Assembly: GCA_041937175.2 (NCBI GenBank) | Contig: CP166615.1 | Coordinates: 4,032,001 to 4,096,000 of the forward strand | From: Limnothrix sp. BL-A-16 | GTDB lineage: Bacteria > Cyanobacteriota > Cyanobacteriia > CACIAM-69d | DNA length: 64,000 nt | Direction: 5' to 3' | Shown here: positions 11,133 through 59,554 of the stretch, piece by piece | Layout of the letters: every line of letters begins with the position of its first letter | Numbering within the stretch: the first letter of the stretch is position 1 | The notes under the pieces: model-generated | What the model saw: only the letters and a program-made list of their open reading frames with translations | Databases searched by the model: none | Told to the model about the DNA's origin: nothing | Program-made: the position numbers and the translations under genes

Positions 11133-11263
11133 GAGGATGCCTGAAAAGCCAAAATTGCTACTCTGTCCGCCCCGGTGATCGACCCAGACAAGGGGCTTAA
11201 GCCCCTTGCTCCCACAATAATTGATGCCTAGCCCGTACTGCAAGTTACTTCCCAGATATTCTC
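11133..11263. mobile_element. MITE-like element A (simple copy)
   Basis: Ends GAGGATGCCTGAAAAG...CTTCCCAGATATTCTC; central palindrome CAAGGGGCTTAAGCCCCTTG. Confidence 0.75.
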
Positions 11264-14814: not shown

Positions 14815-15417
14815 ATGTCCTGTTCAGTTGCCCTGATCCTGATTGGGTTCCAAAACGACTATTTTGCTGCCGATGGGATCCTGCGGTCTGTGATTGACCA
14901 GGCTGTCCCAGTCGATCGCATCTTAGACAGTACGGTACAAGTGGTGCGCGGGGCGATCGCCCATGGAGTCCCCACCATTGCAACCCCAATTTTTTTCACC
15001 CCCACCTATGAAGAATTGGTGGATCCCGTTGGTATCCTTAAAACCGTCCGCGACGTGGGAGCCTTCCAAGCAGGGCAAAAAGGGTCAGAAATGGTTGAGG
15101 CCCTCTTGCCCTTTCAAGATCAAATTTGGGTTGTGCCCGGAAAGCGGGGTTTAAACGCCTTCACGGGAACCTCGTTGCATGAGCTGCTCCAAAAACATCA
15201 AATCACCCAGATTGTGTTGGCCGGTGCGGTCACTTCCGTTTGCATTGACTCCACCGGTCGGGCTGCCCACGAAAAGGGCTATCGCGTGTCAGTTTTGGCC
15301 GATTGCACCTGTGCCAGAACCCAATTTGAGCAGGAATTCTACTTAGAAAATGTGTTTCCCCTTTATGCCAATGTAATTTCCGCTGAGTCCTTTCTTGAGT
15401 CTTTGGCGGATGTCTGA
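14815..15417 (+). CDS. Isochorismatase-like cysteine hydrolase (catalytic Asp position is Gly)
   Basis: LIGFQNDYF, GKRGLNAF and GAVTSVCIDSTGRAA motifs. Confidence 0.85.
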   Translation: MSCSVALILIGFQNDYFAADGILRSVIDQAVPVDRILDSTVQVVRGAIAHGVPTIATPIFFTPTYEELVDPVGILKTVRDVGAFQAGQKGSEMVEALLPFQDQIWVVPGKRGLNAFTGTSLHELLQKHQITQIVLAGAVTSVCIDSTGRAAHEKGYRVSVLADCTCARTQFEQEFYLENVFPLYANVISAESFLESLADV

Positions 15418-15533
15418 AAAGTGTTTTGAGATACCGAGCTAGGGGCCAGCAGTTGGCAAAGGCGCTTGAGCATCCTGTGTTTGCCGGTGACTGGAGCTTG
15501 CAGAGTATCCATTGGGGCTTTTCAGACATCCTC
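15406..15533. mobile_element. MITE-like element A (degenerate; overlaps the hydrolase stop codon)
   Basis: GCGGATGTCTGAAAAG...CTTTTCAGACATCCTC inverted ends. Confidence 0.75.
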
Positions 15534-34564: not shown

Positions 34565-34838
34565 GAGGATATCCGGGCAGCCAAAATTGCTACCCTGCGG
34601 GCATCATCGATCGACACAAACGAGGGGCTTAGGGCCTGTCGTCATTTCTTAGGGTCAGGCGAAAACAGTTGATTATCCTTACCCCAATCGTCGCAACAAG
34701 GGGCTTAAGCCCCTTGTCCCCCACGATCTGTCAACGGCGGAATCAAGGTTTCAGGCGATTTGGCGACACCCCCTAAGCTCCTTGCCCCATGACTCTTAAT
34801 CCTTGGCCCTGGCCAAAAGATACTTTTCAGATCTTTTC
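34565..34838. mobile_element. Nested MITE: element A containing element B (34632-34773)
   Basis: A ends flanked by TAA/TAA; B ends GGGCCTGTCGTCA...TGGCGACACCCCC flanked by TA/TA, splitting A's central palindrome. Confidence 0.8.
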
Positions 34839-34949
34839 TAAATACCCGCAGCAGGTAATACCAAAAACTCATACTGAGAATATCAAGGCTCCAGAAATAC
34901 CCAAGACCTTGTAAAGAAATTCAAGATCGAAAATTTAGGGCTGAAATGG

Positions 34950-34987
34950 CAAAAACCGCAGCGGCTTGTGGGAACCGTGCGGTTTTT
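34950..34987. terminator. Terminator downstream of hli
   Basis: AAAAACCGCA...TGCGGTTTTT hairpin. Confidence 0.65.
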
Positions 34988-35144
34988 GATTGCTGAGCCA
35001 AACCTAATCAAAGGTTTGCGGATGCTTGCCGTTGACTATCGATGATGATCGCCCAAGCGGCTAGATCATGACATCGATGGTACGTTGGCGGTTCTGAACC
35101 AATAATCTTGCCGAGGGAACCAGGCTGAGACTCGATCGAGCCAA

Positions 35145-35288
35145 TTACAGCAGGCCCAGTTGCGACAGGATGCCTTGGCCGGTGATGAATTCCGTAGCGA
35201 TACCGATCACGAAGCCCAGCATTGCCAGACGACCGTTCCAGGTTTCGGCGAAGGCAGTGAAGCCGTATTTAGCCTTTTGCTCAGTCAT
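35145..35288 (-). CDS. hli: High-light-inducible protein (HLIP/SCP)
   Basis: AETWNGRLAMLGF chlorophyll-binding motif. Confidence 0.95.
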   Translation of the reverse strand: MTEQKAKYGFTAFAETWNGRLAMLGFVIGIATEFITGQGILSQLGLL

Positions 35289-35604
35289 GGTTGAAGACCT
35301 CCAAAAAGGGGTTTCGAGCGAATAGATAGAAGTCGAGTTGGGCGAGCGTCCTGGTGTCAAGTTGCTCTATAGAAAATTTAACGCAATTTTTTGTTTACTG
35401 CAACGTTTCGTTACGAATCCATGAGTAAAAACTCTTACTGCTTCCCCTGCTGCCCCGCTGGCCTGCCGTAATTTCCCCCCGCAGCGCCCTTGCCCCATGG
35501 AGCCTCAACGTTTGCTCAATCCTTTGTGGGACAATGGTTCGCGGGCATTAATTCCCAAAAATTTGCCCGGAAAGTTGCCCCTTGGGGGCTGAATTTCGCT
35601 GCTG

Positions 35605-36435
35605 TTGAGTTGGGTGGGGATTGTGGCTGTGGATGGGGAAATTTCGGCAAAGTCGTTGACCTTGGAAGAGGCGATCGCCAATTTGCGCAGTGAAGATGCC
35701 AGCTTGCGTTACTACGCAGCTTGGTGGGTGGGGCGGTTTCGGGTTTCGCAGCCGGACGTGATTGAGGCGCTGATTGAAGCCTTGGATTACGAGGGCGATC
35801 GCACCGAGGCGGGAGGCTTGCCGCTTCAGCGCAATGCGGCGCGGGCGTTGGGGAAATTGGCCGATCGCTCGGCGGTTCCGGCCCTGATTCGATCGCTCAC
35901 GTCGCCCGATTATTACGTGCGGGAGGCGGCGGCCCAGTCCCTCGGGCAGTTGGCAGACGATCGCGCTGTTCCCGGTTTGGTGGCCCTGTTGGATGGAGGC
36001 GTGGCGGCGGCGGTGGTCGTGCCGGGCCAGCCCCACTTGGTGCAGCCCTACGATGCGGTTCTGGAAGCCTTGGGGAATTTGCAGGCGCAGGGGGCGATCG
36101 ACGTGATTCGCCCCTTCACGGAACATTCCGTGCCCAAGGTGCAATACGCGGCCGTGCGGGCCCTGTATCAGCTCACGGGGGATGACCAATGGGGCGAGCG
36201 ACTGGTGGCCGCCCTGCGGGGGCCCGATTTACAGTTGCGGCGGGCCCTGATGGGCGATGTGGGGGCGATCGGCTATTTGGCGGGGGCAGAGGCAATCGCC
36301 CAAACGGAGGCGGAAAATAGCTTGAAACTGATTGCGCTCAAAGGGTTGGCAGAACATCCCAACGCTACCCCCGATGGCCAAACCCTGACGGATGAGGGCC
36401 GCCGCATTTTGGTTTTGATGGATGGCTTGTTGTAG
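35605..36435 (+). CDS. cpcE: Phycocyanobilin lyase subunit CpcE (HEAT repeat)
   Basis: RYYAAWW.G, GGLPLQRNAARALG, AENSLKLIALKG, MDGLL terminus; start uncertain. Confidence 0.88.
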   Translation: MSWVGIVAVDGEISAKSLTLEEAIANLRSEDASLRYYAAWWVGRFRVSQPDVIEALIEALDYEGDRTEAGGLPLQRNAARALGKLADRSAVPALIRSLTSPDYYVREAAAQSLGQLADDRAVPGLVALLDGGVAAAVVVPGQPHLVQPYDAVLEALGNLQAQGAIDVIRPFTEHSVPKVQYAAVRALYQLTGDDQWGERLVAALRGPDLQLRRALMGDVGAIGYLAGAEAIAQTEAENSLKLIALKGLAEHPNATPDGQTLTDEGRRILVLMDGLL

Positions 36436-36493
36436 GGCAGGTCAACAGTACTAAATGGGTCGATCGCACCCCAATGCCGATGAGTGGGCGGCT

Positions 36494-37411
36494 TTATGGC
36501 CGGAGGCGGGCCGATCGGGCGAAAGTCTGTCGGCTGGCCGGTTGGGGATGATTCAGTTGCGACAGGGGGCGGGTTGGTGGTTGTTGGGTTTGGGAATTTG
36601 GCCCCAGCAGGGTTCGGTAATTTTGCAAAAACACCAGTGAGGCGATCGCCAACAGAAAATAGCCAAACCAGCGTTGTAAGCGATCGGCGGGCACCAATTT
36701 TGATAAATAGGCTCCGGGCAACGTGCCCAGGGCCGCCGCCCCCGTGAAGGAAAGGGTCAGGGGCCAATCGATCGCCACATGGCCCGCATAGCCCGCCAGA
36801 CCCGCGATCGAGTTAGCCGCAATAATCACTAGGGACGTGCCGATCGCCTGTTTCATCGGGACATTGCCCAACAGCACCAACGCCGGCACGATCGCAAAAC
36901 CGCCCCCCACACCCACCAACCCGGTCAGCATTCCCACGCCGATGCCCTCCGTTAGCAGCCACAGCCAACAGTAGCGACAGACGGGTTTGGGATAGGCTGC
37001 CAGGGCCGAATCTGGCGATCGATCTGCTGGGGCCGGTTGGTTGCTGCGACGAATCGTGGCGATCGCCGCCAACAGCATCATTCCCACAAACAGCATCATT
37101 TGAATGGGGGGCGTAACCCAAGGTTGGGTGGCCAACTTAGCGCCCCCAAAAGCCCCGATCGCCGTGGATAGCCCAAAAATTGCCGCTATCCGCCAGCGCA
37201 CCCGCCCCGCCCGCCAGTGGGGAATGACTCCCAACAGGCTCACGGTTCCCACAATGGCCAACGTCATGGCGATCGCGGGTTTCACGGGCACGCCCATCAC
37301 CGAAGTCAAAATCGGCAGGGCCAACACCGATCCGCCCCCGCCCAACAGCCCGAGGGCAATGCCGATCACCACGGCCAATCCATGGCCGATCGCCCATATC
37401 AAACTATCCAT
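36494..37411 (-). CDS. Sulfite exporter TauE/SafE family protein
   Basis: LGLLGGGGS and GLVGVGGGF repeats; internal CRYC. Confidence 0.9.
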
Positions 37412-37450
37412 AAACCCATCCACAGAACCATCTATAGAACTGACCCTTAA

Positions 37451-37581
37451 GAGGATGTCTGAAAAGCCAAAATCGACACTCTGCACGCCTCCTCGATCGA
37501 CGAAGACAAGATGCTCAAGCCCCTTGCCCCCACGACTATTGGTGCATTGCCCGTGCCAAAAGACACTTTTTAGACATCCTC
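37451..37581. mobile_element. MITE-like element A (simple copy)
   Basis: TAA-GAGGATGTCTGAAAAG...CTTTTTAGACATCCTC-TAA; degenerate central palindrome. Confidence 0.82.
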
Positions 37582-37779
37582 TAAGAAGTGATCCTTAAAT
37601 TGGCTGATTGCGATCTCAATCAATCGCGATCAATCGACCAACTGAGAATCTTGGAAAGCCACTGCAAATCCGGCCAATTGCATCGGCGATCGGAGTTGAT
37701 CCATTTCGCCTGGCAATTGGCAAAGCTTTCTGAAGCCTGTTTCTGAAGTCTGTTGTTGTGCAGTTTCGCTGCTTGTTCC

Positions 37780-38421
37780 CTAGGACGCACGCTGGTTATA
37801 GGGCAACTTCGCCAGCAGCATGGCCAAAGCGCAGGTGTTGGTGATGCCCGCAAACGTCAGCCCAGCCCCCACAAACCCGCTCAACAGCAAGAACCAAGGG
37901 GAAACCAACGCACCCAGAACCGTGCCCGTGAACACCAAAGAGCCGGCCACGATTTGCACCTGTCGCATCAAACTGATCGGGGCTCGGCGATCGACCAAAA
38001 TGTCCAAACCCGCTGCCTTCCAAGCCTGAAGACCGCCGATCAGGTCGATCGCTGGCGTGCGGCCCGCCTGCATCAATTGATTCGCCACCTCCGCCGATCG
38101 ATTCCCTGTTTGGCAACAGAGCACCACCCAGCGATCGGGCTGAGAAACCGGCACTGTTTGCAAATCCAACTTGCTCATCGGCATCGACAGCGCCCCGGGA
38201 ATGCGTTCCCCGGCAAATTCTCCCGGCTCGCGCACATCCACCACGATCGCCCGATTGGTGGCCAACCAAGCCTGAAGCTCAGTGACGGAAACCCGTTGGC
38301 GCACTGGCCCCACAGGCATCGGCTCAGTTGTCTTACCAAAATCATCGACCACCATCGGTTGAGAGTGGGTTCTGGGCAGTTGAGTAGACGGGGAATTAAC
38401 TTCAGGTTGAACAGGGGTCAT
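37780..38421 (-). CDS. Rhodanese domain protein with C-terminal membrane anchor (YgaP-like)
   Basis: VDVREPGEF, active-site CQTGNRS, GGLQAW, ISLMRQVQI. Confidence 0.9.
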   Translation of the reverse strand: MTPVQPEVNSPSTQLPRTHSQPMVVDDFGKTTEPMPVGPVRQRVSVTELQAWLATNRAIVVDVREPGEFAGERIPGALSMPMSKLDLQTVPVSQPDRWVVLCCQTGNRSAEVANQLMQAGRTPAIDLIGGLQAWKAAGLDILVDRRAPISLMRQVQIVAGSLVFTGTVLGALVSPWFLLLSGFVGAGLTFAGITNTCALAMLLAKLPYNQRAS

Positions 38422-38498
38422 CGATCTAAATCCTGGGAAGATTTGGGAACAGGGAGAAAAGGGGAGGAAACTCAGAACCTCCAGGGCGGACAGCGCGT

Positions 38499-39194
38499 TC
38501 AGACCGTCACCAGTTGCCCGCATTGTTGATTGGCAGGCACGGCCTCAGCCATCTTTTGGGGATTTGGCAGCCCCAAATTTTGCATCAGGGTCACGAAGGT
38601 TGCGCGATCGTGCCCCACAAACCGAGGATTGCAGCGTTTTTCTTCCCCGATCGTGGAAACCGAAAAGCCGCGATAGTCATGGCCCGGGTAAACCAAGGTT
38701 TCATCGGGCAGCGCAAACAGCACTTCTGTCACCACTTGATAGAGCTGTTCGGCATTGCCGCTTTGGAAGTCCGTGCGACCACAGCCGCGAATGAGCAGGG
38801 AATCTCCCGTCAGCAAATGGGTTTGATTCACCAGATAGGCTAAGTGGCTGTCCGTGTGGCCCAGGGTGGCGATCGCTTGAATGGGCACTGAGCCAACCCA
38901 AAACACTTCGTCATCGTCCAAAGTGCGATCGGCGCAGGCGACCTTGGCCCCCATGGGAACAATTCCTTGGCAATCGGTCAAATCGCGTAGCCGACCGGCT
39001 CCGGTCACATGATCCGCGTGGACATGGGTTTCTAGGCAAGCCACCAGGGTCAAGCCCAGTTCCTGAATCAGTTTGTAGTCCCGATCGACCTGTTCCAAAA
39101 CCGAGTCCACCAAGACCGCTTGGCGACTGTCCCGATCGGCGATCAGGTAACTGTAGGTGCTCGTTTCCCGATCGAACAATTGCCGAAACAACAT
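38499..39194 (-). CDS. Persulfide dioxygenase (ETHE1-like MBL-fold)
   Basis: FRQLFD, ETHVHADHVTG, GCGRTDFQ, YPGHDY. Confidence 0.92.
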   Translation of the reverse strand: MLFRQLFDRETSTYSYLIADRDSRQAVLVDSVLEQVDRDYKLIQELGLTLVACLETHVHADHVTGAGRLRDLTDCQGIVPMGAKVACADRTLDDDEVFWVGSVPIQAIATLGHTDSHLAYLVNQTHLLTGDSLLIRGCGRTDFQSGNAEQLYQVVTEVLFALPDETLVYPGHDYRGFSVSTIGEEKRCNPRFVGHDRATFVTLMQNLGLPNPQKMAEAVPANQQCGQLVTV

Positions 39195-39306
39195 AGGGCA
39201 GTTCCTAAGAGTGAAGGGTGTTGGGCAAATTAGGAGGCAAATTGAAGGAGCAAGCAGCGGAATATGGTCTGAGAGAGGCTCTTGGTTCTTTTATGCTTGA
39301 TTAATT

Positions 39307-39328
39307 AATATAACTATATACTCATATT
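39307..39328. promoter_or_regulatory. Putative ArsR operator
   Basis: AATATAACTATATACTCATATT imperfect palindrome (18 of 22 positions) between the divergent PDO and ArsR genes. Confidence 0.55.
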
Positions 39329-39641
39329 TGGGATTTGCCACCCGATCGCCCCCATTTTTTCACCGGCTCCGTTAGCCTGGGTGGCCAGTCGTCACCCAGC
39401 TTCACTGGAATCGGGTTACCACCAGAATGCTCGATCGCCTTGATTTTGCCCAATACTTTCCTTCAGGGACAATTGAGCCATTCAATGGGGTAGAGTTGCC
39501 TTCGCAAGGGGATCAGAATCATTAACATCCTGTCGGGATCTCTCCTTCCCTGTCCGCTTCTGCCCTCGGTCAAGCCCTGATTCTGCATCCATGGCACCCC
39601 TCCGCAACTCTCCTTTTCCCTTCGCTTGGACATCGAGTTCT

Positions 39642-39986
39642 ATGGCTAATACCCTTGACCATGAGTTAGACGCACTGGCATTCGTCGCGGACTATCTCAA
39701 GGTTTTGTCGGAACGCAATCGATTGCGAGTGCTGTGCTGCTTGCGGGAGGGGCCCCGAAATGTGGCGGAAATTGTGGAAGCAACGGGCCTGACCCAGGCT
39801 AATACTTCCAAGCATCTAAAAGTTTTGTCTCAAGCGGGCATGGTTGCTCGACAATCCCAAGGCACCAGCGCCTATTACCGAATTGTGGATCCGCTGATTT
39901 TTGATCTTTGTGAATTAATTTGGCGGCGACTGAGCGATCGCTTGGAACAGCAACAACAGGTGATCGCCAGTTTTCGGGTGCAGTAA
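39642..39986 (+). CDS. ArsR/SmtB family transcriptional regulator
   Basis: LKVLSERNRLRVL, SKHLKVL winged HTH; three Cys. Confidence 0.92.
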   Translation: MANTLDHELDALAFVADYLKVLSERNRLRVLCCLREGPRNVAEIVEATGLTQANTSKHLKVLSQAGMVARQSQGTSAYYRIVDPLIFDLCELIWRRLSDRLEQQQQVIASFRVQ

Positions 39987-40168
39987 TTGGCCGATCGGGT
40001 GGCTATGCCAACGCGCCCTTAACGCGCCACTCACTCGCCATTAGCTCGCCCGCCATGAATTCGTCATGGAAGTGGGCTGTATGAAAGTGGGCTGCAATCA
40101 CCGGGGATTGTGCAATTTTTGCTACCGTTCAGACAGTCCCTCGAAATCGCGCCCCTCGAAATTTCGCC

Positions 40169-40861
40169 ATGGTAGCTCACCCTCGCATCACCCACGTTAT
40201 CTACGATCTCGACGGTTTGTTGCTGGATACGGAATCAATTAATGAAGCGGTGAACCGGGCGATCGCCGATCGCTACGGTTGTGCTTACGATCCAGCGGTG
40301 CGGGGACGCATCGCCGGGCGCGATGCCCACACGTCATCGGCGATTTTGGTGGAATGGTTGGGGTTGCCCATCAGTCCCGAGGAAATGTTGCAACAGCGGC
40401 GATCGCTGGTGGCCCAGTGGCAACCGGTGGCTAAACCGATGCCGGGGGCGGTGGAGTTGACCCATCACCTGCACCGATCGGGCGTTCCCCAGGCGATCGC
40501 CACCAGTTCCAGCCGCGGCCCCTTTGGTTGGAAGGCCGCACCTCACCGGGATTGGTTTCGCCTGTTTCACTGCACGGTGCTGAGTGATGATCCGGGGGTG
40601 CGCCAGGCCAAGCCCGCGCCGGATCTGTTTCGGGAAGCGGCTCGACGATTGGGGGCCGACCCGCGCCACTGTCTGGTGTTTGAGGATGCGCCAGCGGGCA
40701 TTGAGGCGGCCCGGGCGGCAGGAATGTCGGTGATTGCGATTCCGGATCCGGCCTTGGAGCGATCGAGCCTGGCCCAGGCCGATGCGATTTTGCCCTCTTT
40801 GCAGGCCTTTGAGCCGGCCGATTGGGGATTGCCCGCTCGGGTTCCAGCGGCGGTTTGCTAA
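40169..40861 (+). CDS. HAD-IA family phosphatase
   Basis: DLDGLLLDTE, KPAPDLF, VFEDAPAG. Confidence 0.92.
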   Translation: MVAHPRITHVIYDLDGLLLDTESINEAVNRAIADRYGCAYDPAVRGRIAGRDAHTSSAILVEWLGLPISPEEMLQQRRSLVAQWQPVAKPMPGAVELTHHLHRSGVPQAIATSSSRGPFGWKAAPHRDWFRLFHCTVLSDDPGVRQAKPAPDLFREAARRLGADPRHCLVFEDAPAGIEAARAAGMSVIAIPDPALERSSLAQADAILPSLQAFEPADWGLPARVPAAVC

Positions 40862-40894
40862 AGGGATGGGGCGATCGATGGGGCGCGTTCCGGC

Positions 40895-41467
40895 TTAACG
40901 GTTGGCTTCATCACCGTTTGCTTCAGGACTGAGCAGGTAGGTAGGGAGCCGATCGATGCTGGTTTGGTTCTTTGCTTGCCAATAGGCTTGCAGACCATCG
41001 GGGCCTTTGCGCTCCGCCCATTCCACTAACTGGGTGCGATCGCCCTGATAGTCAAACAACGGAACCCCAAACCCACAGGAGGTTTGCACCGAATCCACCG
41101 ACAGCAACATGATTTGGCGCGTACCGGGCAGGGCCTCGAATCGATCGAGCCAGGATTGCCAATCGAGATCCCGTGGCCGAATCACGCGCCCTTGGCCATA
41201 CAGCCGCAAAATTAACGGCGCACCCACAAAGCTGCAAAACATGAGGGTTAACCGGCCGTTTTCCGTTACGTGGGCTGCGGTTTCGTTGCCGCTGCCAGTC
41301 ACGTCCAAATAACCCACCAAATTGGGTTCAAAACAGCGAAAGGTGTCCATCCCCTTGGGCGACACATTCACTCGTCCCTCTTGGGGAGCGGATGCCGTGA
41401 AAAACAGCTTCTGTTGTTCAATAAAAGCGGCCAGTTCCGGTGTGATTTGCTCGTAAAATTTTGCCAT
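40895..41467 (-). CDS. Pyridoxamine 5'-phosphate oxidase family (FMN-binding) protein
   Basis: NVSPKG, GSGNETAAH, TSCGFGVP. Confidence 0.88.
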   Translation of the reverse strand: MAKFYEQITPELAAFIEQQKLFFTASAPQEGRVNVSPKGMDTFRCFEPNLVGYLDVTGSGNETAAHVTENGRLTLMFCSFVGAPLILRLYGQGRVIRPRDLDWQSWLDRFEALPGTRQIMLLSVDSVQTSCGFGVPLFDYQGDRTQLVEWAERKGPDGLQAYWQAKNQTSIDRLPTYLLSPEANGDEANR

Positions 41468-41609
41468 TTTGTTATCTCTAAACCTCTCTAGGGTTTTCTG
41501 AAATTCTCTGAAATTCTCTAAAATTTAAGCATTTGGAATTCGCAGGCTGGCGTGAATCCTCCAGCACCTTCTCCAATTTCTCAATTTTAGGTTATCCCTA
41601 GGTTATTCA

Positions 41610-43178
41610 ATGGCTGCTGCTTCTCCATCTGCTAGCTGCGCGATCGTCTGGTTTCGTACTGATTTGCGTCTCCATGATCATGAACCGCTCTTGGCGGCTG
41701 CCGAAAGCCACAAGACGTTGATTCCGGTCTATTGTTTTGACCCACGACAGTTTGCGGAAACTGCCTTTGGTTTTCCCAAAACGGGCCCCTTCCGCGCTCG
41801 ATTTTTGCTGGAATCGATTGCTGATCTGCGAGCAGCCTTACGAGCGAAGGGCAGTGATTTAATCGTGCGATCGGGGCTGCCAGAAGTGGTGTTACCGGCC
41901 CTGGCAGCGGAATATGGAGCACAGGCTATTTATTATCACGAAGAGGTGGGAACCGAAGAACAAGCGGTTGAATTGGCCCTCGAAGCAGCTCTGAAGACTC
42001 CACAAGCGCCCAGACCGATCCCGGGAAACATTCAAAGCAAAGTTTATTGGGGCCACACCCTCTATCACCCGGATAATTTGCCCTTTGAGATTGGTCAAAT
42101 CCCAGAGCTATTTACGGAATTTCGGAAAACCGTTGAAGCGCGATCGACCATTGATCCCCCCTTGCCCCCGCCCGATCGCCTGCCACCTCTGCCGCCGGAT
42201 CTGAACCCCGGTGAATTGCCCCGTTTGGCCGATTGGGGGTTGGTGGAACCGGAACCCAGCCCCTTGGCGCTGATCTCGTTTACGGGTGGCGAACAGGCCG
42301 GCTTCCAGCGGCTTCAGGAATACATTTGGGATGGCGATCATTTGCGGGTTTATAAGCAAACGCGCAACGGTATGTTGCAGCCCAATGATGCATCGAAATT
42401 CTCGCCTTGGTTGGCGCTGGGCTGTCTTTCGCCTCGGAAAATTTGGGCCGAAGTGCAAGCCTATGAACAGAAAGTGATTCGCAATGAATCTACCTATTGG
42501 CTCATTTTTGAACTGTTGTGGCGCGACTATTTCCGCTGGATTGTGGCGAAACATCGCCATCGAGTTTTTCGAGTGACGGGTTTGCAGGGAATAGCAATTC
42601 CTTGGCGACGGGATGCGGCGGCTTTTGCGGCTTGGTGCAACGGGCAAACGGGCTATCCCTTGGTGGATGCCAACATGCGAGAACTCCGCGCCACAGGGTT
42701 TATGTCGAATCGAGGTCGTCAAAATGTGGCCAGCTTTTTAACCAAGAATTTGGGAATTGATTGGCGAATGGGGGCCGAGTGGTTTGAATCTTGGTTGATT
42801 GATTATGATGTGTGCAGCAATTGGGGTAATTGGAACTACACGGCTGGGGTGGGAAATGATGCAAGAGGGTTTCGCTTTTTCAATATTTTGAAGCAAGCCA
42901 AGGATTACGATCCGCAAGGGGAATACGTGAAACATTGGCTCCCGGAATTGCGTCAATTGCCCGCTGGAAAAGTGCATCATCCCTGGATGTTGTTGCCCGT
43001 GGAACAGGAGCGGTTTGGTGTACAAATTGGCTGTGATTATCCAGGGGCGATCGTGGATTTGTTTGAGTCGGCGGCGGAGAATGAAGCCCTTTATAACCGA
43101 GCGATCGGGCAGGGTGCTGCGGGTCGCTCAAAGCCGGCCCATCGGGGTTCCCGGCGCGATCGCCCCCGACGACCTTAG
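41610..43178 (+). CDS. cry: Cryptochrome DASH
   Basis: WFRTDLRLHDH, YKQTRNG, MSNRGRQNVASF, DYDVCSNWGNW. Confidence 0.93.
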   Translation: MAAASPSASCAIVWFRTDLRLHDHEPLLAAAESHKTLIPVYCFDPRQFAETAFGFPKTGPFRARFLLESIADLRAALRAKGSDLIVRSGLPEVVLPALAAEYGAQAIYYHEEVGTEEQAVELALEAALKTPQAPRPIPGNIQSKVYWGHTLYHPDNLPFEIGQIPELFTEFRKTVEARSTIDPPLPPPDRLPPLPPDLNPGELPRLADWGLVEPEPSPLALISFTGGEQAGFQRLQEYIWDGDHLRVYKQTRNGMLQPNDASKFSPWLALGCLSPRKIWAEVQAYEQKVIRNESTYWLIFELLWRDYFRWIVAKHRHRVFRVTGLQGIAIPWRRDAAAFAAWCNGQTGYPLVDANMRELRATGFMSNRGRQNVASFLTKNLGIDWRMGAEWFESWLIDYDVCSNWGNWNYTAGVGNDARGFRFFNILKQAKDYDPQGEYVKHWLPELRQLPAGKVHHPWMLLPVEQERFGVQIGCDYPGAIVDLFESAAENEALYNRAIGQGAAGRSKPAHRGSRRDRPRRP

Positions 43179-43454
43179 GAAGCTGTTTCAAAAGCCAAAA
43201 TTGCTACCTTGTAGGTCTGATCGATCGGGACAAACAAGGGGTTTAGGACTTGTCGCCAAATCGTCTGAAACCCTGATTCCACCGTTAGCGGATCGTGGGG
43301 AGCAAGGGGCTTGAGCATCTTGTTACGACGACTAGGGTACGGAAGATCAACCGTTTCAGCCTCACCTCGAAAAATGACGACAGGCCCTTAATCCCTGTGC
43401 TCCGCGATTTATGGATCCTTGCCCCATGCCCAAAGACACTTTTCAGACATTTTC
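43179..43454. mobile_element. Nested MITE: element A containing element B (43246-43387) in the opposite relative orientation
   Basis: A ends GAAGCTGTTTCAAAAG...CTTTTCAGACATTTTC; B ends GGACTTGTCGCCA...TGACGACAGGCCC. Confidence 0.78.
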
Positions 43455-43566
43455 TGAGGCATCAAGGGGTTTCATTGATGTTTTGGAGCGGTAACGTTGG
43501 GCCAGGAACTTTGGATAGATACGGTGACGAGAGTAATTCTGGGCAAGATTTGGAGGTAAGAGGGTG

Positions 43567-45324
43567 ATGGAGCGATCGATGACAACGGCAGCAACCCACC
43601 AAAATCGGGTCAGCCCTTCCGGTTACGGACTGCGACGGCGGTTGGGGCGATCGCTGGTGGCCTTGGGGGCCAGCCTGCTGGCCGGTGGCTTCGCGCCCGC
43701 CTTGGCCCAAGCTGCCGAGCGGATTGAGCTGACCTTTGGGGCCTTGGGCCTGTCGATCGAAATGAAGTCCCTAGAAGACTTTGTGGCGACCGGTGAAATT
43801 TCCGATGAGCTGGAGTTCTATACCCGGTTTCTGACTCCCGATCAATTGGCTCAGGTGCGATCGGCCCTGACCGATCGCCTGGATATCAACCTGTTGGCCG
43901 TGTCGCAATTCTTCAATGCGCCCCAAGGGGAAACCATCCTGCGGCGCTTGGCCCAAGTGATCCGCACCGGGCGCAATTTACAAAGTGTGCCGGCCCTGCG
44001 TGCTGCGATCGTCCGTTCCGCCGCCGACCCGGAAGGACTAACCCCCCTGAATTTGCTGCGCTACTATCCCACTCCCAGTATGCGAGTGGACTTGGCCCAA
44101 GCCCTGAGCCTGTGGCGACAAATTGAGGAAACCACCATTCACCAAGACCAAGCCACCGCCGCCGTGGAAACGGCCTTTGCGGCCCAAGCTGGCTCTCCCA
44201 TTACGCCGCCCCCTTTTGAGTTGCGACAACCGGGCCCCTATGCGACCGCCAAAACCAACCGTGTAATTCAGCCGCGCGATCGTCGTCCCTTTGCGGCCGA
44301 TCTTTACTGGCCCTTGGCCGCGACGGGCGATCGCCCCGTGGTGGTCATTTCCCACGGACTCGGATCCGATCGACGCACCTATGGTTACCTGGGCGAACAC
44401 TTGGCCTCCCACGGTTTCATTGCCATCCTGCTGGAGCACCCCGGCAGCGACAGCCGCTACATCCAAGCCCTGATTAACGGCGAGGCCAGCGAAGCCGCCG
44501 ACCCCAGGGAGTTCATTTCGCGGCCGGCCGATGTGCGCGACATTCTCAACGAACTGGCAACCAACCCCCAAGCCCCTGGAGGATTCACCGGGGTCATTGA
44601 CCTCGATCGCACGGCCGTAGTGGGGCAGTCCTTTGGTGGATACACCGCCCTGGCCAGTGCCGGGGCCCCGCTGAATTTCAAGCGGCTGAAAACCGACTGC
44701 GCCTCCGACGACCTGTTTTGGAATACGTCGCTGCTGTTGCAATGTCGGGCTTTGGTGGTGCGCCCCACGCCTGACACGGATTATCTATCCCTGCAAGATG
44801 CCAGGGTGAAGGCCGTGGTGGCCATTAGCCCAATTACTTCCAGCCTGTTTGGGCGCGAAGGGATTGCCCAACTGCAAGTGCCCACGGCGATTTTGTCGGC
44901 CAGTAATGACCCGATCGCCCTGCCCTTGTCGGAGCAGTTGCGCCCCTTTGCTCAAATGTCGATCGCGGATAAGTATCTGTTGGTGCTGCGAGGTGGCACG
45001 CATTTTTCAACGCTGGGGGCCACGGGCGATGAAACCGTGCAGCTTCCGGCTAGCTTGGTGGGCCCCCGGCCGGACTTGGCTCGCGACTACACGAAAGCCT
45101 TCATCACGGCTTTTTTGAAGCGATATTTGGGGAACGATCACACTATGGCGAACCATCTCACCCCCCAATGGGCCAATTCCGTTTCTCAGCCAGAGTTGCC
45201 GCTGTATTTGCTGAGTCAACTCTCGATCGAGCAGTTGCCGCGCCCCGTGGCCCACAGGCCAACCAAAAATTCCCGATGGATTGCCAATCGCCACCGGCCC
45301 GATCAACCCATCCAGACCCGCTGA
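43567..45324 (+). CDS. DUF1400-domain alpha/beta hydrolase
   Basis: AERI N-terminus after signal peptide, ISHGLGS, GQSFGG nucleophile elbow, GTHFS. Confidence 0.88.
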   Translation: MERSMTTAATHQNRVSPSGYGLRRRLGRSLVALGASLLAGGFAPALAQAAERIELTFGALGLSIEMKSLEDFVATGEISDELEFYTRFLTPDQLAQVRSALTDRLDINLLAVSQFFNAPQGETILRRLAQVIRTGRNLQSVPALRAAIVRSAADPEGLTPLNLLRYYPTPSMRVDLAQALSLWRQIEETTIHQDQATAAVETAFAAQAGSPITPPPFELRQPGPYATAKTNRVIQPRDRRPFAADLYWPLAATGDRPVVVISHGLGSDRRTYGYLGEHLASHGFIAILLEHPGSDSRYIQALINGEASEAADPREFISRPADVRDILNELATNPQAPGGFTGVIDLDRTAVVGQSFGGYTALASAGAPLNFKRLKTDCASDDLFWNTSLLLQCRALVVRPTPDTDYLSLQDARVKAVVAISPITSSLFGREGIAQLQVPTAILSASNDPIALPLSEQLRPFAQMSIADKYLLVLRGGTHFSTLGATGDETVQLPASLVGPRPDLARDYTKAFITAFLKRYLGNDHTMANHLTPQWANSVSQPELPLYLLSQLSIEQLPRPVAHRPTKNSRWIANRHRPDQPIQTR

Positions 45325-45412
45325 AGAAATGGGGCTATGGCGAGTGGATTGGGGCGATCGTCAGGGAATTGGGACGAGCAAGCGCTCAATCCTCTAGTTC
45401 AATCCTCTGGGC

Positions 45413-45553
45413 CTAATCTTCGTGATCTTCAAAGGGATCCGACAAATTCTCAGACGGCGGCCCAAAAGCCACATAAATCGAGTACCCCGTGATGGCAACC
45501 AGAATTGTGCCGAGGGCAATTCCCAATGTTAAAGCAGAGTTGTCTTCTAGCAT
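45413..45553 (-). CDS. psbN: Photosystem II assembly protein PsbN
   Basis: Translated by hand: [46 protein letters not shown]; divergent from psbH. Confidence 0.95.
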
Positions 45554-45885
45554 GGTTTAAGGGTCTCGATGGCCGGGCCGCTGGCCCATTTCTCGCAAAT
45601 TGTAACAATTAGTTAAGTAAAATCGCAAACTTCTCAGGGAGTCCGCCCGATCGCCCACTGCCCGCTAGCCTTAGTTCTCAGGCCACCGCTGGCTTGCCCC
45701 CACGGAACTCCCCAAACAGCAGGCACAGCCGTTTGATAGAATACCCAATCAAATAGCATTGGCGGCGTGCTGCATTCGTGCGGCAATTGCTGCACTATTT
45801 AATAAAAAGCAACATCAACGGCAACGCCCAGTTGCTTCAACGGCTGCAAGACTCCATTGTTGCGAAACACTACGGTAGGGATAAG

Positions 45886-46089
45886 ATGGCTCAACGGACT
45901 CGCCTGGGCGACATTTTGCGCCCGTTAAATGCGGAATACGGTAAGGTGGCTCCCGGCTGGGGGACGACCCCGCTGATGGCTGTTTTCATGGGGTTGTTTT
46001 TTGTGTTCCTGCTGATCATCTTGCAGGTGTACAACACCTCGATCTTGATTGAAGGCGTTAATGTCGATTGGAAGTCGCTGGGTCAATAG
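45886..46089 (+). CDS. psbH: Photosystem II protein PsbH
   Basis: [29 protein letters not shown]. Confidence 0.97.
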
Positions 46090-46272
46090 ATTTCGGTGAA
46101 TGGCTTGGGGTGATGAGTCTGCATCAACAGATTTCAGATTTCCACCCCAAGAATGGCCCGCCCGATCGACTGGTTTGAGGAACTAACAGCTAGAGAATTG
46201 CTGAGTTCTGAGCGTTGGATTCTACAAATCTTTGAGAGTTAAGTCATCAACTGGTCGATCGCCCAGTCCCAC

Positions 46273-46298
46273 AGCCCCGGTGTATCCGGGCTTTTTTA
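46273..46298 (+). terminator. Terminator downstream of psbH
   Basis: GCCCCGG-TGTAT-CCGGGC-TTTTTT. Confidence 0.65.
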
Positions 46299-46346
46299 TG
46301 GGCAACATTCGCCATACCACCGACCTTGATCTTGGCTTGCTCTTGG

Positions 46347-46624
46347 AAGGATGTCTGAGAAGTAGCTCGGGATGCTGGCAAAGCGCGGGTAGTCGTGGGG
46401 GCAAGGGGCTTAGGGCCTGTCGTCGTTGAGCACGAAACCCTAGACCTGACCTTAACGGATCGTGGGGGGCAAGGGGCTTAAGCCCCTTGTTACGACGATC
46501 TGGGCGCGAAAGATCAACCGTTTCAGCATCACCTTGAAAAATGACGATACCCCCCAAGCCCCTTGTCTCTGTTGCTCGACGAGACGACCGACAGGGTAGT
46601 CGTTTTGGCTTTTCAGACATCCCC
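46347..46624. mobile_element. Nested MITE: element A (reverse) containing element B (46413-46554)
   Basis: A ends AAGGATGTCTGAGAAG...CTTTTCAGACATCCCC; B ends GGGCCTGTCGTCG...TGACGATACCCCC with its own intact central palindrome. Confidence 0.8.
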
Positions 46625-52305: not shown

Positions 52306-55300
52306 ATGACCCCGGACGATCGCGATCGCGTTGCGGCATTCCTCAAAAAATGGCAAGGCTCGGAAGGCAACGAACGGGCGAATTATCAATCATTCTTTGG
52401 GGATTGGTGTCGGGCCTTGGGTGTCGAAGAACCACCGCCCAAGGGAACCGTTCCCGGCGATCCCTACTGCTTCGACAAGGACATTAAGTTCTACAGCGAC
52501 AAGGCCGAATCCACGCGGTTTGCGGATTTTTATAAGGCTGGTTGTTTCCTGATTGAAGCCAAGCAGGGCAGCGATTCTTCGGCCAAAGGCCATGGAAAAC
52601 GGGGCACGAAGATCTATCGCGACAACCTGCAAAAGGCTTTTAACCAAGCGAAATCCTACGCCTACAACCGAATGCTGGGATCGTTGCCGCCATTTTTGAT
52701 GGTGTGCGACATCGGCTCCCATTTCGAGATTTGGCAAGGGTTCAGCGGCGAATATGGCGGCTATGGGGCGCGGGAAACGGTCAACCTGGCGGACTTGGCC
52801 CAGCCGGAGGTGTTCGATCGCTTCGTCAAAATCTTCACGGATCCGCAGGCGCTGAACCCCGAAAAGCTGCGGGCGCGGGTGACTCGGGAAGTGGCGGCGG
52901 AGTTGGCCAAGCTGTCGCGTTGGCTGGAGGAGCAGGGCCACGATCCCCAGGCAACGGCGAGTTTCCTGATGCGCTGCATTTTCACGATGTTTGCGGAGGA
53001 TGTGGCGCTGCTGAAGGGGGAGGTGTTCACGAAGGCGCTGCGCGATCGCTGGATTCCCAACCCGGCGACCTTTAAGCCGGAAATTGAATCCCTATGGGAA
53101 ACGATGAATCGGGGTGGCTCCTTCGGTTTCGAGAAGGTGCTGAAGTTTAACGGCAGTTTTTTTGAGAATGCGACGGCGATCGCCCTGCCCAAGGAACAAC
53201 TAGAAATCCTGTACGCGGCGGTGGCGAAGGATTGGAGCCAGGTGGAGCCAGCGATTTTTGGCACGTTGTTGGAGCGGGCGCTGGACAAGGCGGAGCGCAG
53301 CCGGTTGGGGGCGCACTACACGCCGCGATCGTATGTGGAGCGGTTGGTGCGGCCGGTGGTGATGGAGCCGTTGCGATCGCAGTGGGAGGCGATCGAGTTG
53401 GAGGTGAAGCGGCTGTTGGATGGCAGTGCGGGGGCGGTGGTGAAGGCGGTGGCAGAAATTCAGGGGTTTTTGGAGCAGTTGCGATCGATTCGGATTCTCG
53501 ATCCGGCCTGTGGGACGGGGAATTTTTTGTATGTGTCGTTGGATTTGCTGAAGGGTTTGGAGCAGGAGGTTTTGACGCGGCTGGTGGATGTGGCGGGAGA
53601 GGTGCAACTGAATGTCTTGGAGCAGGTGAATCCGTCGCAATTTTTAGGAATTGAAATTAATCCTCGGGCCAAGGAAATTGCAGAGTTAGTAATTTGGATT
53701 GGCTATTTGCAGTGGCATTTCAAGCGGTTTGGCAATGCGGAGCCATCCATGCCTGTTTTACGAGCATTTGACAATATCGAATGTCGCGATGCGGTGCTGG
53801 CCTATGACGGGATAGAGCCAGATATTGACCCGAAAACGGGGCAGGTGCGAACTCGTTGGGGTGGCAAGATGATGACTCACCCAGTAACAGGACAGGAAGT
53901 TCCTGATCTGACTAATCAAGTAGTGATCTATCGCTATCGAAATCCACGTCCCTCTGAATGGCCAAACAGCGATTACATCGTTTCTAATCCGCCTTTTATT
54001 GGCAATGCCAGAATGCGCGAAAAGCTGGGCGATGGCTATACAGAAACTCTTCGGCAAGCCTATGCCGATGTGCCCGACACAGTTGATTTTGTCATGTATT
54101 GGTGGTACAAAGCAGCGGATCTTGCTATTAAAAATCAAACAGGTACTTTTGGCTTAATTACAACTAACAGTATTAATCAGCCCAGATTGCGATGCGTCCT
54201 TGAAAAGCAATTTCAAAAAGCCCCAGATCTGCAATTGAAATTTGTGATTCCTGATCATCCCTGGGTTGATGATGGTGCTGATGTTCGCATTGCTATGACT
54301 GCCTGTCAGCTAAATCCGACGACTCAGAGTTTAGGTTCAGTCATCAGCGAAACGGAATCGTTAGACCGGGACTTCTCAGAAGTTGTTATTGAATACAAAG
54401 ACACTCAAGCAATTTTTAGTAATCTGCGTGATGATTCCGACTTAGAGCAGATCACTGCCCTTAAATCAAATGAAGGACTTGCTAGCCGAGGAATTATGCT
54501 TGGTGGCAAGGGATTTTTGCTCAAAGATTCGCAGAGAGAACTGATTGAACCAGACTTAATTAAAAGGTATATGAATGGCAGAGATCTTCTTAGGAAATCC
54601 CGAAACCTAGTTGTGATCGATGCATTTGGACTGTCTCAAAGAGAGTTGCAATCAAAATATCCGCGTACCTATGAATGGCTCTTGAATAATGTCAAGCCAG
54701 CAAGGGAAGCGAATAATGATCCAAAACTCAAGAAGGAGTGGTGGCTATATCGTCGATCCAATATTACGATCAGACAAGCTTTGAGCAATCTAAGACGATA
54801 CATTGTAACGGTCGAAACCGCAAAGCATCGAATCTTCTCTTTTGTTGATCGAGATATTATTTGTGACAACAAGATTCTGATCGTTGCCCTAGAAGATTCC
54901 TACGCTTTAGGAATTCTTTCTAGTGCAATTCATATTCGTTGGGCTTTGACGGTTGGTGGGCGACTGGAAGATCGCCCGGTCTATGTCAAAACAACTTGCT
55001 TTGATCCGTTTCCATTTCCTGAGCCAGACGATCGCCTAAAACAAGAAATTCGCGAACTGGGCGATCGGCTCGATGCCCATCGCAAAACCGTGCAGGCCAA
55101 CCACCCCGACATCACCATCACCGGGATGTATAACCTGCTCGAAAAACTCCGCGCCGGTCAACCCTTCACCGACAAAGACCGCGAACTGAACGATCGCGCC
55201 CTCGTCTCCACCCTCAAACAAATTCACGACGACCTCGATCGCGCCGTCTTCCGCGCCTACGGTTGGGACGACCTCATCCCCCTACTGACCACCCACCAGA

Positions 55301-55779
55301 CAAGGGGCTTAAGCCCCTTGCCCCCCACCGACGATCGCCCCTTGCCCCCCGACGAGGAACCCGCCAACGGCCTCGATGAACAAATCCTGGAACGGCTGGT
55401 GAAACTCAACGCCGAACGCGCCGCCGAAGAACGCAACGGCCACATTCGCTGGCTGCGGCCCGACTACCAAGCCCCCGCCACCCAAACCACCCAAACCGCG
55501 ATCGCCAACCTAATCGACAGCCCCGAGCCGATCGTCCCCGCCGCCGAGCCACAGCCCTGGCCCACGCAACCGAAAGCCCAACTCGCCGCCATCCGTGACC
55601 TCCTGCGCAGCAACCCCGGCAACTGGTCGATCGACCAAATCGCCGCCCAATTCAAAGGCAAACCTACCGACAAACGCAAACAGGTAATTCGCGAAAACCT
55701 CGATCGGCTCGAATGGTTTGGCCTCGCCATCCAACAGGAAAATACCTGGCACTACGCCGCCCCTAACCCGATCGCCTAG
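52306..55779 (+). CDS. MmeI-like type IIL/IIG restriction-modification enzyme (nuclease, N6-adenine MTase, TRD)
   Basis: D...IEAK nuclease motif, GAHYTP, LDPACGTGNF, NPPF, FDPFPFP. Confidence 0.92.
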   Translation: MTPDDRDRVAAFLKKWQGSEGNERANYQSFFGDWCRALGVEEPPPKGTVPGDPYCFDKDIKFYSDKAESTRFADFYKAGCFLIEAKQGSDSSAKGHGKRGTKIYRDNLQKAFNQAKSYAYNRMLGSLPPFLMVCDIGSHFEIWQGFSGEYGGYGARETVNLADLAQPEVFDRFVKIFTDPQALNPEKLRARVTREVAAELAKLSRWLEEQGHDPQATASFLMRCIFTMFAEDVALLKGEVFTKALRDRWIPNPATFKPEIESLWETMNRGGSFGFEKVLKFNGSFFENATAIALPKEQLEILYAAVAKDWSQVEPAIFGTLLERALDKAERSRLGAHYTPRSYVERLVRPVVMEPLRSQWEAIELEVKRLLDGSAGAVVKAVAEIQGFLEQLRSIRILDPACGTGNFLYVSLDLLKGLEQEVLTRLVDVAGEVQLNVLEQVNPSQFLGIEINPRAKEIAELVIWIGYLQWHFKRFGNAEPSMPVLRAFDNIECRDAVLAYDGIEPDIDPKTGQVRTRWGGKMMTHPVTGQEVPDLTNQVVIYRYRNPRPSEWPNSDYIVSNPPFIGNARMREKLGDGYTETLRQAYADVPDTVDFVMYWWYKAADLAIKNQTGTFGLITTNSINQPRLRCVLEKQFQKAPDLQLKFVIPDHPWVDDGADVRIAMTACQLNPTTQSLGSVISETESLDRDFSEVVIEYKDTQAIFSNLRDDSDLEQITALKSNEGLASRGIMLGGKGFLLKDSQRELIEPDLIKRYMNGRDLLRKSRNLVVIDAFGLSQRELQSKYPRTYEWLLNNVKPAREANNDPKLKKEWWLYRRSNITIRQALSNLRRYIVTVETAKHRIFSFVDRDIICDNKILIVALEDSYALGILSSAIHIRWALTVGGRLEDRPVYVKTTCFDPFPFPEPDDRLKQEIRELGDRLDAHRKTVQANHPDITITGMYNLLEKLRAGQPFTDKDRELNDRALVSTLKQIHDDLDRAVFRAYGWDDLIPLLTTHQTRGLSPLPPTDDRPLPPDEEPANGLDEQILERLVKLNAERAAEERNGHIRWLRPDYQAPATQTTQTAIANLIDSPEPIVPAAEPQPWPTQPKAQLAAIRDLLRSNPGNWSIDQIAAQFKGKPTDKRKQVIRENLDRLEWFGLAIQQENTWHYAAPNPIA
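55301..55320. repeat. Perfect palindrome CAAGGGGCTTAAGCCCCTTG inside the RM gene
   Basis: Identical to the core of elements A and B; read in frame. Confidence 0.9.
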
Positions 55780-59413: not shown

Positions 59414-59554
59414 GGGATTGTCACCATTTTTTGAGGTAATTCTGAAACGGTTGATCTTCCTTACCCCAATCGTCGTAACAAGGGGCTTAAGCCCCTTGTC
59501 CCCGCGATCCGCTAACGGCAGATCTAGGGTTTTGGGCTAAACGACGACAGATCC
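59414..59554. mobile_element. Element B inserted in a degenerate palindrome-bearing remnant
   Basis: Ends GGGATTGTCACCA...CGACGACAGATCC; central palindrome intact; right flank TAAGCCCCTTG continues as a B-like arm. Confidence 0.75.

Follow-up and report, generated by a model that had tools for sequence, protein, structure and literature searches.

The 64,000-nucleotide stretch of Limnothrix sp. BL-A-16 DNA considered here (the window; contig CP166615.1, positions 4,032,001 to 4,096,000) belongs to a 4.54 Mb cyanobacterial chromosome (C1 of genome G000), which has 5252 sites of the highly iterated palindrome HIP1 and a cpcE gene, and contains, between housekeeping genes, three intergenic composites of two MITEs (miniature transposable elements with inverted repeats), A and B, in which a 142-bp B splits the center of a palindrome carried by A (Table 1). 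This 20-bp palindrome, P, has the center GGGCT-TA-AGCCC and a variant differing at three bases, V (CAAGATGCTCAAGCCCCTTG), and is argued below to be, probably, a repetitive extragenic palindrome (REP) that travels as the cargo of several MITE families, one of which happens to prefer P-like targets. The first-pass annotation, made from the letters of the window only, had taken the arrangement for a nested system of two families, and the coordinates and ends that it gave for the composites at 34565, 43179 and 46347 hold, as do the clean TA duplication at 34630-34631 and 34774-34775 (TA/TT and TA/CA flanks being seen in the other two composites) and the orientation of B relative to A, which is the same at 34565 and 46347 and opposite at 43179. 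Its three empty A copies (11133, 15406 and 37451) are indeed where it had placed them, but the exact palindrome ascribed to all of them is present in the one at 11133 only, with V at 37451 and a decayed core at 15406.

An orthologue in a sister species (G002, 93-94% identity, with comparisons covering 1.59 of its approximately 4.5 Mb) was sought for eight loci of the window, none being obtained for 11133 and 55301 and an ambiguous one for 59479; both the A-only state and the state with neither element, which the first-pass annotation had proposed to look for, are seen at the composite loci. The A/B structures are probably not an assembly artefact; A/B junctions joined to unique flanks are found in lake-metagenome contigs (four runs, each of a different study, one of the runs possibly being the source sample), and no join skipping B is found among the lake-run matches listed, even if such contigs are unable to prove its absence.

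Table 1. MITEs and palindromes of the window (window coordinates; G002 is the sister species)
Feature	Position	Strand	Remarks
MITE A with B inside its central palindrome	34565..34838	+	ends of IS5-family type, TAA/TAA duplication; G002 orthologue is an A with the palindrome intact and no B
MITE B in the A of 34565	34632..34773	+	142 bp, between the two TA copies; own palindrome at 34697-34716
Empty MITE A	37451..37581	+	core V at 37507-37526; in G002, the orthologous A has core P and belongs to another subfamily
MITE A with oppositely oriented B	43179..43454	+	directly after the stop codon of a DASH cryptochrome gene; A without B in G002
MITE B in the A of 43179	43246..43387	-	core V at 43303-43322; flanks TA/TT
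MITE A with B	46347..46624	-	entire composite missing at the orthologous G002 site
MITE B in the A of 46347	46413..46554	-	exact palindrome at 46470-46489; flanks TA/CA
Empty MITE A	11133..11263	+	exact palindrome at 11189-11208
Old empty MITE A	15406..15533	-	core decayed; present in G002 too
Fourth MITE B	59414..59554	+	of the one-sided type, with half a palindrome and part of a second right arm behind it; missed at first pass
In-frame palindrome	55301..55320		reads TRGLSPL within the MmeI-like restriction-modification gene 52306-55779, as a lone copy; missed at first pass

MITE Families Sharing One Core

Profile searches of the chromosome recovered 113 near-full copies of A (131 bp, 16-bp terminal inverted repeats, TIRs) and as many of B (142 bp, 13-bp TIRs), both of which have what is expected of MITEs, being short, non-coding and present in many copies, with TIRs, a target duplication and empty orthologous sites. 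The duplication of A is 3 bp long and nearly always TNA (identical 3-bp flanks in 67 of 85 end pairs), the TAA noted at first pass being that of the best copies, and the duplication of B is TA in 45 of 61 end pairs. The two-family scope of the earlier description proved too narrow, as there are at least three such MITE families in addition to free copies of the palindrome, which would itself stem from the REP system described further below: the third family, C (146 bp, ends TAGTAGCG, 30 copies at CTAG-type sites, e.g., C1:12870-13015 and 124765-124910), also has P in its middle. Nearly all of the elements defined by their ends only contain the core (A, 97 of 99; B, 73 of 74; C, 9 of 10); a 105-bp element with C ends and no core lies at C1:649325, and C-type ends in other genera enclose either no REP or a different hairpin. 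Among the cores compared with the 1.59 Mb of G002, 20 out of 30 in A and 23 out of 33 in B are missing from the orthologous site. An identity of A, B and C with REPINs (hairpin-forming REP doublets) was considered and rejected, each of the three having a single central palindrome with TIRs and duplications of the insertion sequence (IS) type, and not a pair of inverted REPs separated by a spacer. The z values obtained on RNA folding for four elements, -1.9 to -3.7, do not discriminate between the explanations weighed below. As a separate observation, IS702-like IS5 copies are inserted into the arms of core-bearing MITEs at C1:280500-281500 and 3693400-3694300.

Chromosome-wide, P occurs 326 times exactly and at 528 sites when up to three mismatches or the form V are allowed (reversed control: 0), which is far more than chance would give. 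Of the 528, 200 are without an A or B arm match; C, tandem arrays and decayed MITEs are among these, as are 7 genic copies read in frame. With a length within the 20-40 bp expected of a REP, its many copies and its extragenic location (7 of the 528 sites lie deep inside open reading frames, ORFs, of at least 250 aa), P has the general makeup of one. Some of its copies form tandem arrays of palindrome plus linker that are reminiscent of bacterial interspersed mosaic elements (BIMEs), at C1:1649053-1649433, 2371934-2372110, 3729638-3729795 and 1008432-1008506, those with a G002 orthologue having fewer units there. Another repeat of C1, of about 36 bp with 85 identical copies (core CAAACCTCTGATGCCGTAAGGCGTTGAGCAC), is probably a CRISPR array.

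The core is approximately ten times more conserved than the arms, with a divergence of 0.8-2.3% (scored against the best of three core types) vs. 14-21% for the arms and 9-16% for the TIRs. V, with 68 exact copies, three fixed changes and almost no intermediates, occurs in A, B and C, and in both orientations in A and B, and arm pairs that are at least 97% identical differ in their core type in 28 of 78 cases for A and 19 of 30 for B. At three sites with a G002 orthologue (C1:1034655, 2162382 and 906319) the core switches among P, V and a new symmetric form with the arms nearly unchanged, the element at C1:1034655 being, in addition, a chimera of a B arm and a C arm joined at the core. Gene conversion at a fragile hairpin would be the simplest account of such rewriting, RAYT-type exchange (that of REP-associated tyrosine transposases, RAYTs) or selection being the alternatives. 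Two other origins of V were rejected: an assembly error (V is also found in genomes G001, 9 copies, and G002, 34 copies, and at orthologous sites) and recombination of P with a second palindrome, which is absent from G000 and has three look-alike sites in G001 and G002 together. In the case of the empty A at 37451-37581, which shares its site with an A of another arm subfamily in G002, either conversion might have replaced one element by the other or the same TAA might have been hit by a second insertion.

Insertion of B into the Palindrome

A P half is present on both sides in 25 of the 113 B copies when judged strictly, the host being A in 11 cases, B in 6, C in 1 and a free palindrome in 7, with B oriented like its strict A host in 7 cases and oppositely in 4; the six B-in-B nestings bear out the earlier suggestion that B, carrying the palindrome itself, brings a new target along. 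A lenient reconstruction of the same 113 copies puts 38 in P, 16 in one-sided structures and 59 elsewhere, at unrelated YTAR sites, and with about half of the copies at such sites P has to be regarded as a hot spot and not as an obligate target. What had been described as an element aimed at the palindrome therefore shows a strong (25-38 of 113, with 1-2% expected for YTAR sites), yet not exclusive, preference when mapped genome-wide. P makes up 0.3% of the TA sites and, among the YTAR sites outside long ORFs, 2.3% (enrichment p = 2e-17). None of the 113 A and none of the 30 C copies splits a P, and the supposition that the palindrome is a landing site shared by both transposases has to be abandoned.

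The sites that B occupies outside P have the symmetric consensus RRGCY-TA-RGCYY (RRGCYTARGCYY), which the center of P fits nearly perfectly. A matrix built from 37 clean non-P sites predicts a share of insertions into P that ranges from 8%, with 3 bases on either side and all TA sites considered, to 60%, with 6 bases and intergenic sites, and, as this range brackets the observed share, a linear sequence preference would be enough to account for the presence of B in P.

As for the history of the composites, G002 has empty P sites also opposite the B insertions at C1:338178 and 3646614. In 11 or 12 of 12 composites, an empty A resembles the host A at least as much as any other composite host does, and for 10 of the 12 the nearest B is not that of another composite; no sign of a composite moving as a unit was seen. 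The empty orthologues, the two orientations and the similarity of the hosts all uphold the first-pass inference of at least two independent B insertions. Among 140 junctions, one-sided structures (an end, the right arm, half a P and TA, and then B) were counted 25 times vs. 2 for the left-arm form, and genome G003, of the same family, has them too; this suggests an attack by one B end on the P that a sister copy of the same element carries, with a weaker detection of the more diverse left arm possibly contributing to the imbalance. Two further observations on B deserve a record of their own: an identical non-TA sequence follows a B end at both C1:438683 and 3394390, and at C1:3807085 a B is inserted at a TA in the stem of a different, GTAG-type hairpin, the G002 site being without B.

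Parent Transposons

Searching 401 genomes of the class with the B-type fragment of C1:1150889 (see below) revealed in G003 an 862-bp IS (L032) with B-type ends and two frameshifted ORFs (DUF4096 and DDE_Tnp_1), which sits between two P halves with TA on either side, behind two B-like arms, and has no P inside. Elements bounded by A-type ends around a broken DDE_Tnp_1 gene were found in G006 (an IS5-type pseudogene) and G004, and the search for full-length ISs with the same termini that the first-pass annotation had called for has thus yielded a B-type IS and broken A-type copies in relatives. ISs of the autonomous type with matching ends are known from relatives only (L032 for B; L135, a broken copy flanked by TAA/TTA, and L136 for A), the genome under study having, for B only, a 5' fragment at C1:1150889, where a B-type end and the start of a DUF4096 transposase are located in a P within a B arm. 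Related ISs of other families have ends similar to those of B and YTAR-type flanks.

As parent-type ISs with their ends exist in relatives, A and B are, judging by sequence, both IS5-family derivatives: the parent of B has a length of about 850 bp, the two frameshifted ORFs (DUF4096, DDE_Tnp_1) and a TA or YTAR target, and the parent of A has DDE_Tnp_1, ends starting with G(A/T)G and a 3-bp TNA duplication. The former presumably belongs to the IS427 group and the latter to the IS1031 group. The expectation of two different transposases acting on A and B seems sound; the placement of B outside the IS5 family was not. The resident transposases (nine IS702-like, one IS1031-like, three IS630 and one Y1 gene) were rejected as movers, having other ends or no P nearby. 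Four matches to the A end were found in viral contigs, none of which resolved into an IS, and no parent IS of C was found in 301 genomes.

The Palindrome in Restriction-Modification Genes and in MITEs of Other Cyanobacteria

Exact P is present in 77 of the 401 genomes and occurs in other phyla too. In two genomes, four P copies bracket a 450-bp stretch that is an HUH-Y1 domain in frame within a type ISP restriction enzyme, and a close homologue of this RAYT-like domain was found in five genomes, with 3-5 P copies around it in all five. Metagenome loci with an identity of at least 53%, whose hosts are type ISP and Eco57I-like enzymes, have P or a co-varying form in 15 of 16 cases (the sixteenth ends at the match), as opposed to 0 of 55 distant loci, and in the most diverged RAYT loci the form of the palindrome changes with the protein. 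RAYT-like HUH domains with in-frame P copies are spread over type ISP and Eco57I-like restriction-modification enzymes of many bacteria (L262-L266, L377-L390 and L460), and P, in flanking a cognate HUH-Y1 gene and varying with it, behaves as a REP would. A type ISP gene of G001 has an in-frame P at the loop that holds the cassette in other loci, a point at which the assembly breaks; the bases flanking the in-frame P copies resemble those beside the core in A and B. The RAYT-like domain (P0002) contains both DHVH and Y and scores above the cut-off of Pfam Y1_Tnp. Given the observed association, P would be the REP of this RAYT-like clade, whose members may be presumed to cleave it. The sole Y1/HUH gene of G000 itself (C1:1721500-1722280) is of another RAYT-like type, has no P nearby, and its 3' end is partly repeated about 500 bp downstream.

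The location of P inside MITEs also recurs in distant cyanobacteria: all of the 28 copies sampled from G042, which has 182 of them and a RAYT, fall into two repeat families, about 95 bp long and bounded by TACAGC or TATAGC, and in G388 approximately 24 of 25 lie in two TATAGC-ended families, both as read by eye. An automatic TIR score, which is a poor detector of short-TIR families, passes only 2 of 28 copies (vs. 4 of 48 controls) in G042 and 10 of 25 in G388; mixed loci with further end types gave 15 of 137 vs. 2 of 204 controls (p = 4e-5).

Discussion

The reading that we favor, to which we would assign a probability of about 0.7, has three layers. P would be the REP hairpin of HUH/Y1 (RAYT-like) domains residing in frame inside restriction-modification genes; together with a few flanking bases, it would have become the central cargo of several unrelated MITE families, most likely by RAYT delivery in the first place, and would since have spread mainly by riding on these MITEs, of which A, B and C are presumably moved in trans by ordinary DDE transposases reading their ends only (of the IS5 family in the case of A and B). 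The B transposase, finally, would prefer RRGCY-TA-RGCYY, and, the center of P being a near-perfect match that hundreds of copies between genes have on offer, both B and its parent IS would land in the P of A, B, C or free copies, every new B supplying a new P. Hairpin-triggered gene conversion could be responsible for both the uniformity of the core and the P/V swaps.

Quite a few observations weigh against this reading. There is no clear core-less ancestor of A or B among the copies found, no intact transposase with A or B ends in this complete genome, and no cognate RAYT in G000, G001 or G002 (with P0002 as the query), such a RAYT being present in only 5 of the 77 P-bearing genomes. P0002 reaches 63 bits (E = 2e-17) with NCBIfam REP_Tyr_transpos, which is below the cut-off of 80, and P lacks a GTAG-type foot, the 5' tetramers among 652 being GGGG (125), GGGA (79), CAGA (76), GTAA (71) and TAGA (63), a mixture because of which P is not filed as a GTAG-family REP. 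On the side of B, the range predicted by the matrix is wide and depends on the matrix width, which leaves room for recognition of the hairpin shape; among the 30 IS loci fetched, the others with B-like ends do not lie in P; and the P-B junction is absent from five distant P-rich genomes, which confines the nesting loop, as known so far, to this family.

It could be countered that the core is simply a functional part of the MITE, i.e., a central hairpin or a protein-binding site that bends such short elements for the pairing of their ends and is fixed by selection for mobility, as would befit a core diverging so much less than arms and TIRs, hardly ever missing, recurring in the central position across several genera and having a compensated variant in 10 copies. 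This seems unlikely to us, as core-less C-type elements do exist, the bulged V is tolerated in both orientations, and old immobile copies keep the exact core as well, which rewriting in place fits better than selection for mobility does. Should the MITEs, instead, have been born from REPs, with two P copies near the ends of an IS recombining, deleting the transposase gene and leaving a left arm, P and a right arm behind, the single central P of families with unrelated ends would be accounted for, and both the chimeric elements joined at P and the 15/16 stretch that the right arm of B shares with the sequence just upstream of the IS-fragment start at C1:1150889 would fall into place; MITE arms, however, do not match the parent-type IS ends of G003 and G006 beyond the TIR, no IS with an internal P was seen, and such a birth appears quite improbable.

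The dedicated two-family system of the first-pass annotation, with a B transposase that specifically recognizes the palindrome and a landing site common to two transposases, can point to a 10- to 15-fold enrichment over intergenic YTAR sites and to a parent IS that was found in P too. With 59 of 113 B copies elsewhere, P never split by A or C, and P present in 77 of the 401 genomes yet without a B junction in the five distant ones tested, we regard it as very improbable. A bolder reading is entertained as a tentative possibility, and a rather doubtful one: P might live as a hyperparasite with MITEs for its normal hosts, a RAYT-like domain concealed in restriction-modification genes planting or exchanging the hairpin at the center of MITEs from several IS families in various cyanobacteria, or carving MITEs from ISs, and the MITEs amplifying P to hundreds of copies long after the loss of the RAYT, with the core rewritten independently of the arms, from P to V as well as in reverse and in either orientation; B would then close the loop by means of its own best target, one end attacking in cis and building arrays of arm plus half-hairpin (25 for the right arm vs. 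2 for the left). If true, this would explain the spread of REPs in genomes without a RAYT.

The broader question addressed by these data is how REP hairpins reach hundreds of copies in genomes that often have no RAYT at all. The occurrence, in several genera, of a defined REP nearly exclusively within DDE-type MITEs, together with the identification of its RAYT clade, offers a testable route, namely, the hitch-hiking of REPs on MITEs. B, for its part, is a naturally occurring MITE equipped with the very target it prefers, which acts as a safe harbor steering insertions into already existing junk DNA, and for the ends of B a full-length transposase is available in a relative, G003.

Comparison with Known Systems

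Neither this palindrome, nor one REP shared across several MITE families, nor a MITE carrying its own preferred target was matched in the literature consulted, and surveys of cyanobacterial repeats and MITEs (Elhai 2008, Lin 2011, Kaneko 2007, Wolk 2010) could describe something of the kind; P was likewise not found in the portion of the supplement of PMC6006769 considered here. The comparisons that follow are with the parts of the cited works drawn upon. As cyanobacterial MITEs, A and B resemble Nezha and the MaeMITEs, i.e., elements of 130-170 bp with IS-like TIRs, duplications, empty and filled orthologous sites and a parent IS present only in another species (PMC3184786), sharing with them size, TIRs, duplications, empty/filled sites and a foreign parent IS; the shared central REP and the self-nesting seen here are unmentioned in the portions of that work considered.

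Insertion into REPs has been described for IS1397, ISKpn1, IS621, ISRm22 and ISNm1106, with ISRm22 inserting at the symmetry axis of the REP, as B does, and an IS5 member listed with a weaker REP association (PMC1525189, PMC3184786); in contrast to B, these ISs carry no REP, and several of them are 100% REP-specific, as opposed to 22-34% for B. Closer still is QMITE2 of Coxiella burnetii, a REP-bearing MITE whose REP is the insertion target of IS1111 (PMC5896051, PMC10969869): there, as here, a MITE carries a REP that is targeted by an IS, but the invader is an autonomous IS110-family element with one host MITE, whereas in the present case it is an IS5-family MITE bearing the target itself, the REP is common to several unrelated MITE families in several genera, and a cognate RAYT clade is identified.

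With the REPtrons, in which TnpA_REP (RAYT) is associated with REP or BIME copies and in-frame REPs occur in RAYT genes (PMC6006769, PMC5581495), the present system shares an HUH-Y1 domain with a short palindrome repeated several times beside it and read in frame, extragenic copies that number in the hundreds, and tandem arrays of palindrome plus linker. It differs from them in that the domain lies inside restriction-modification enzymes, there is no GTAG foot, DDE-type MITEs harbor most of the genomic copies, and the majority of the carrier genomes lack the RAYT. The insertion of ISs into REPs and into REP-bearing MITEs is already known; what appears to be new here is the link between a core shared by MITEs and the RAYT domains inside restriction-modification genes.

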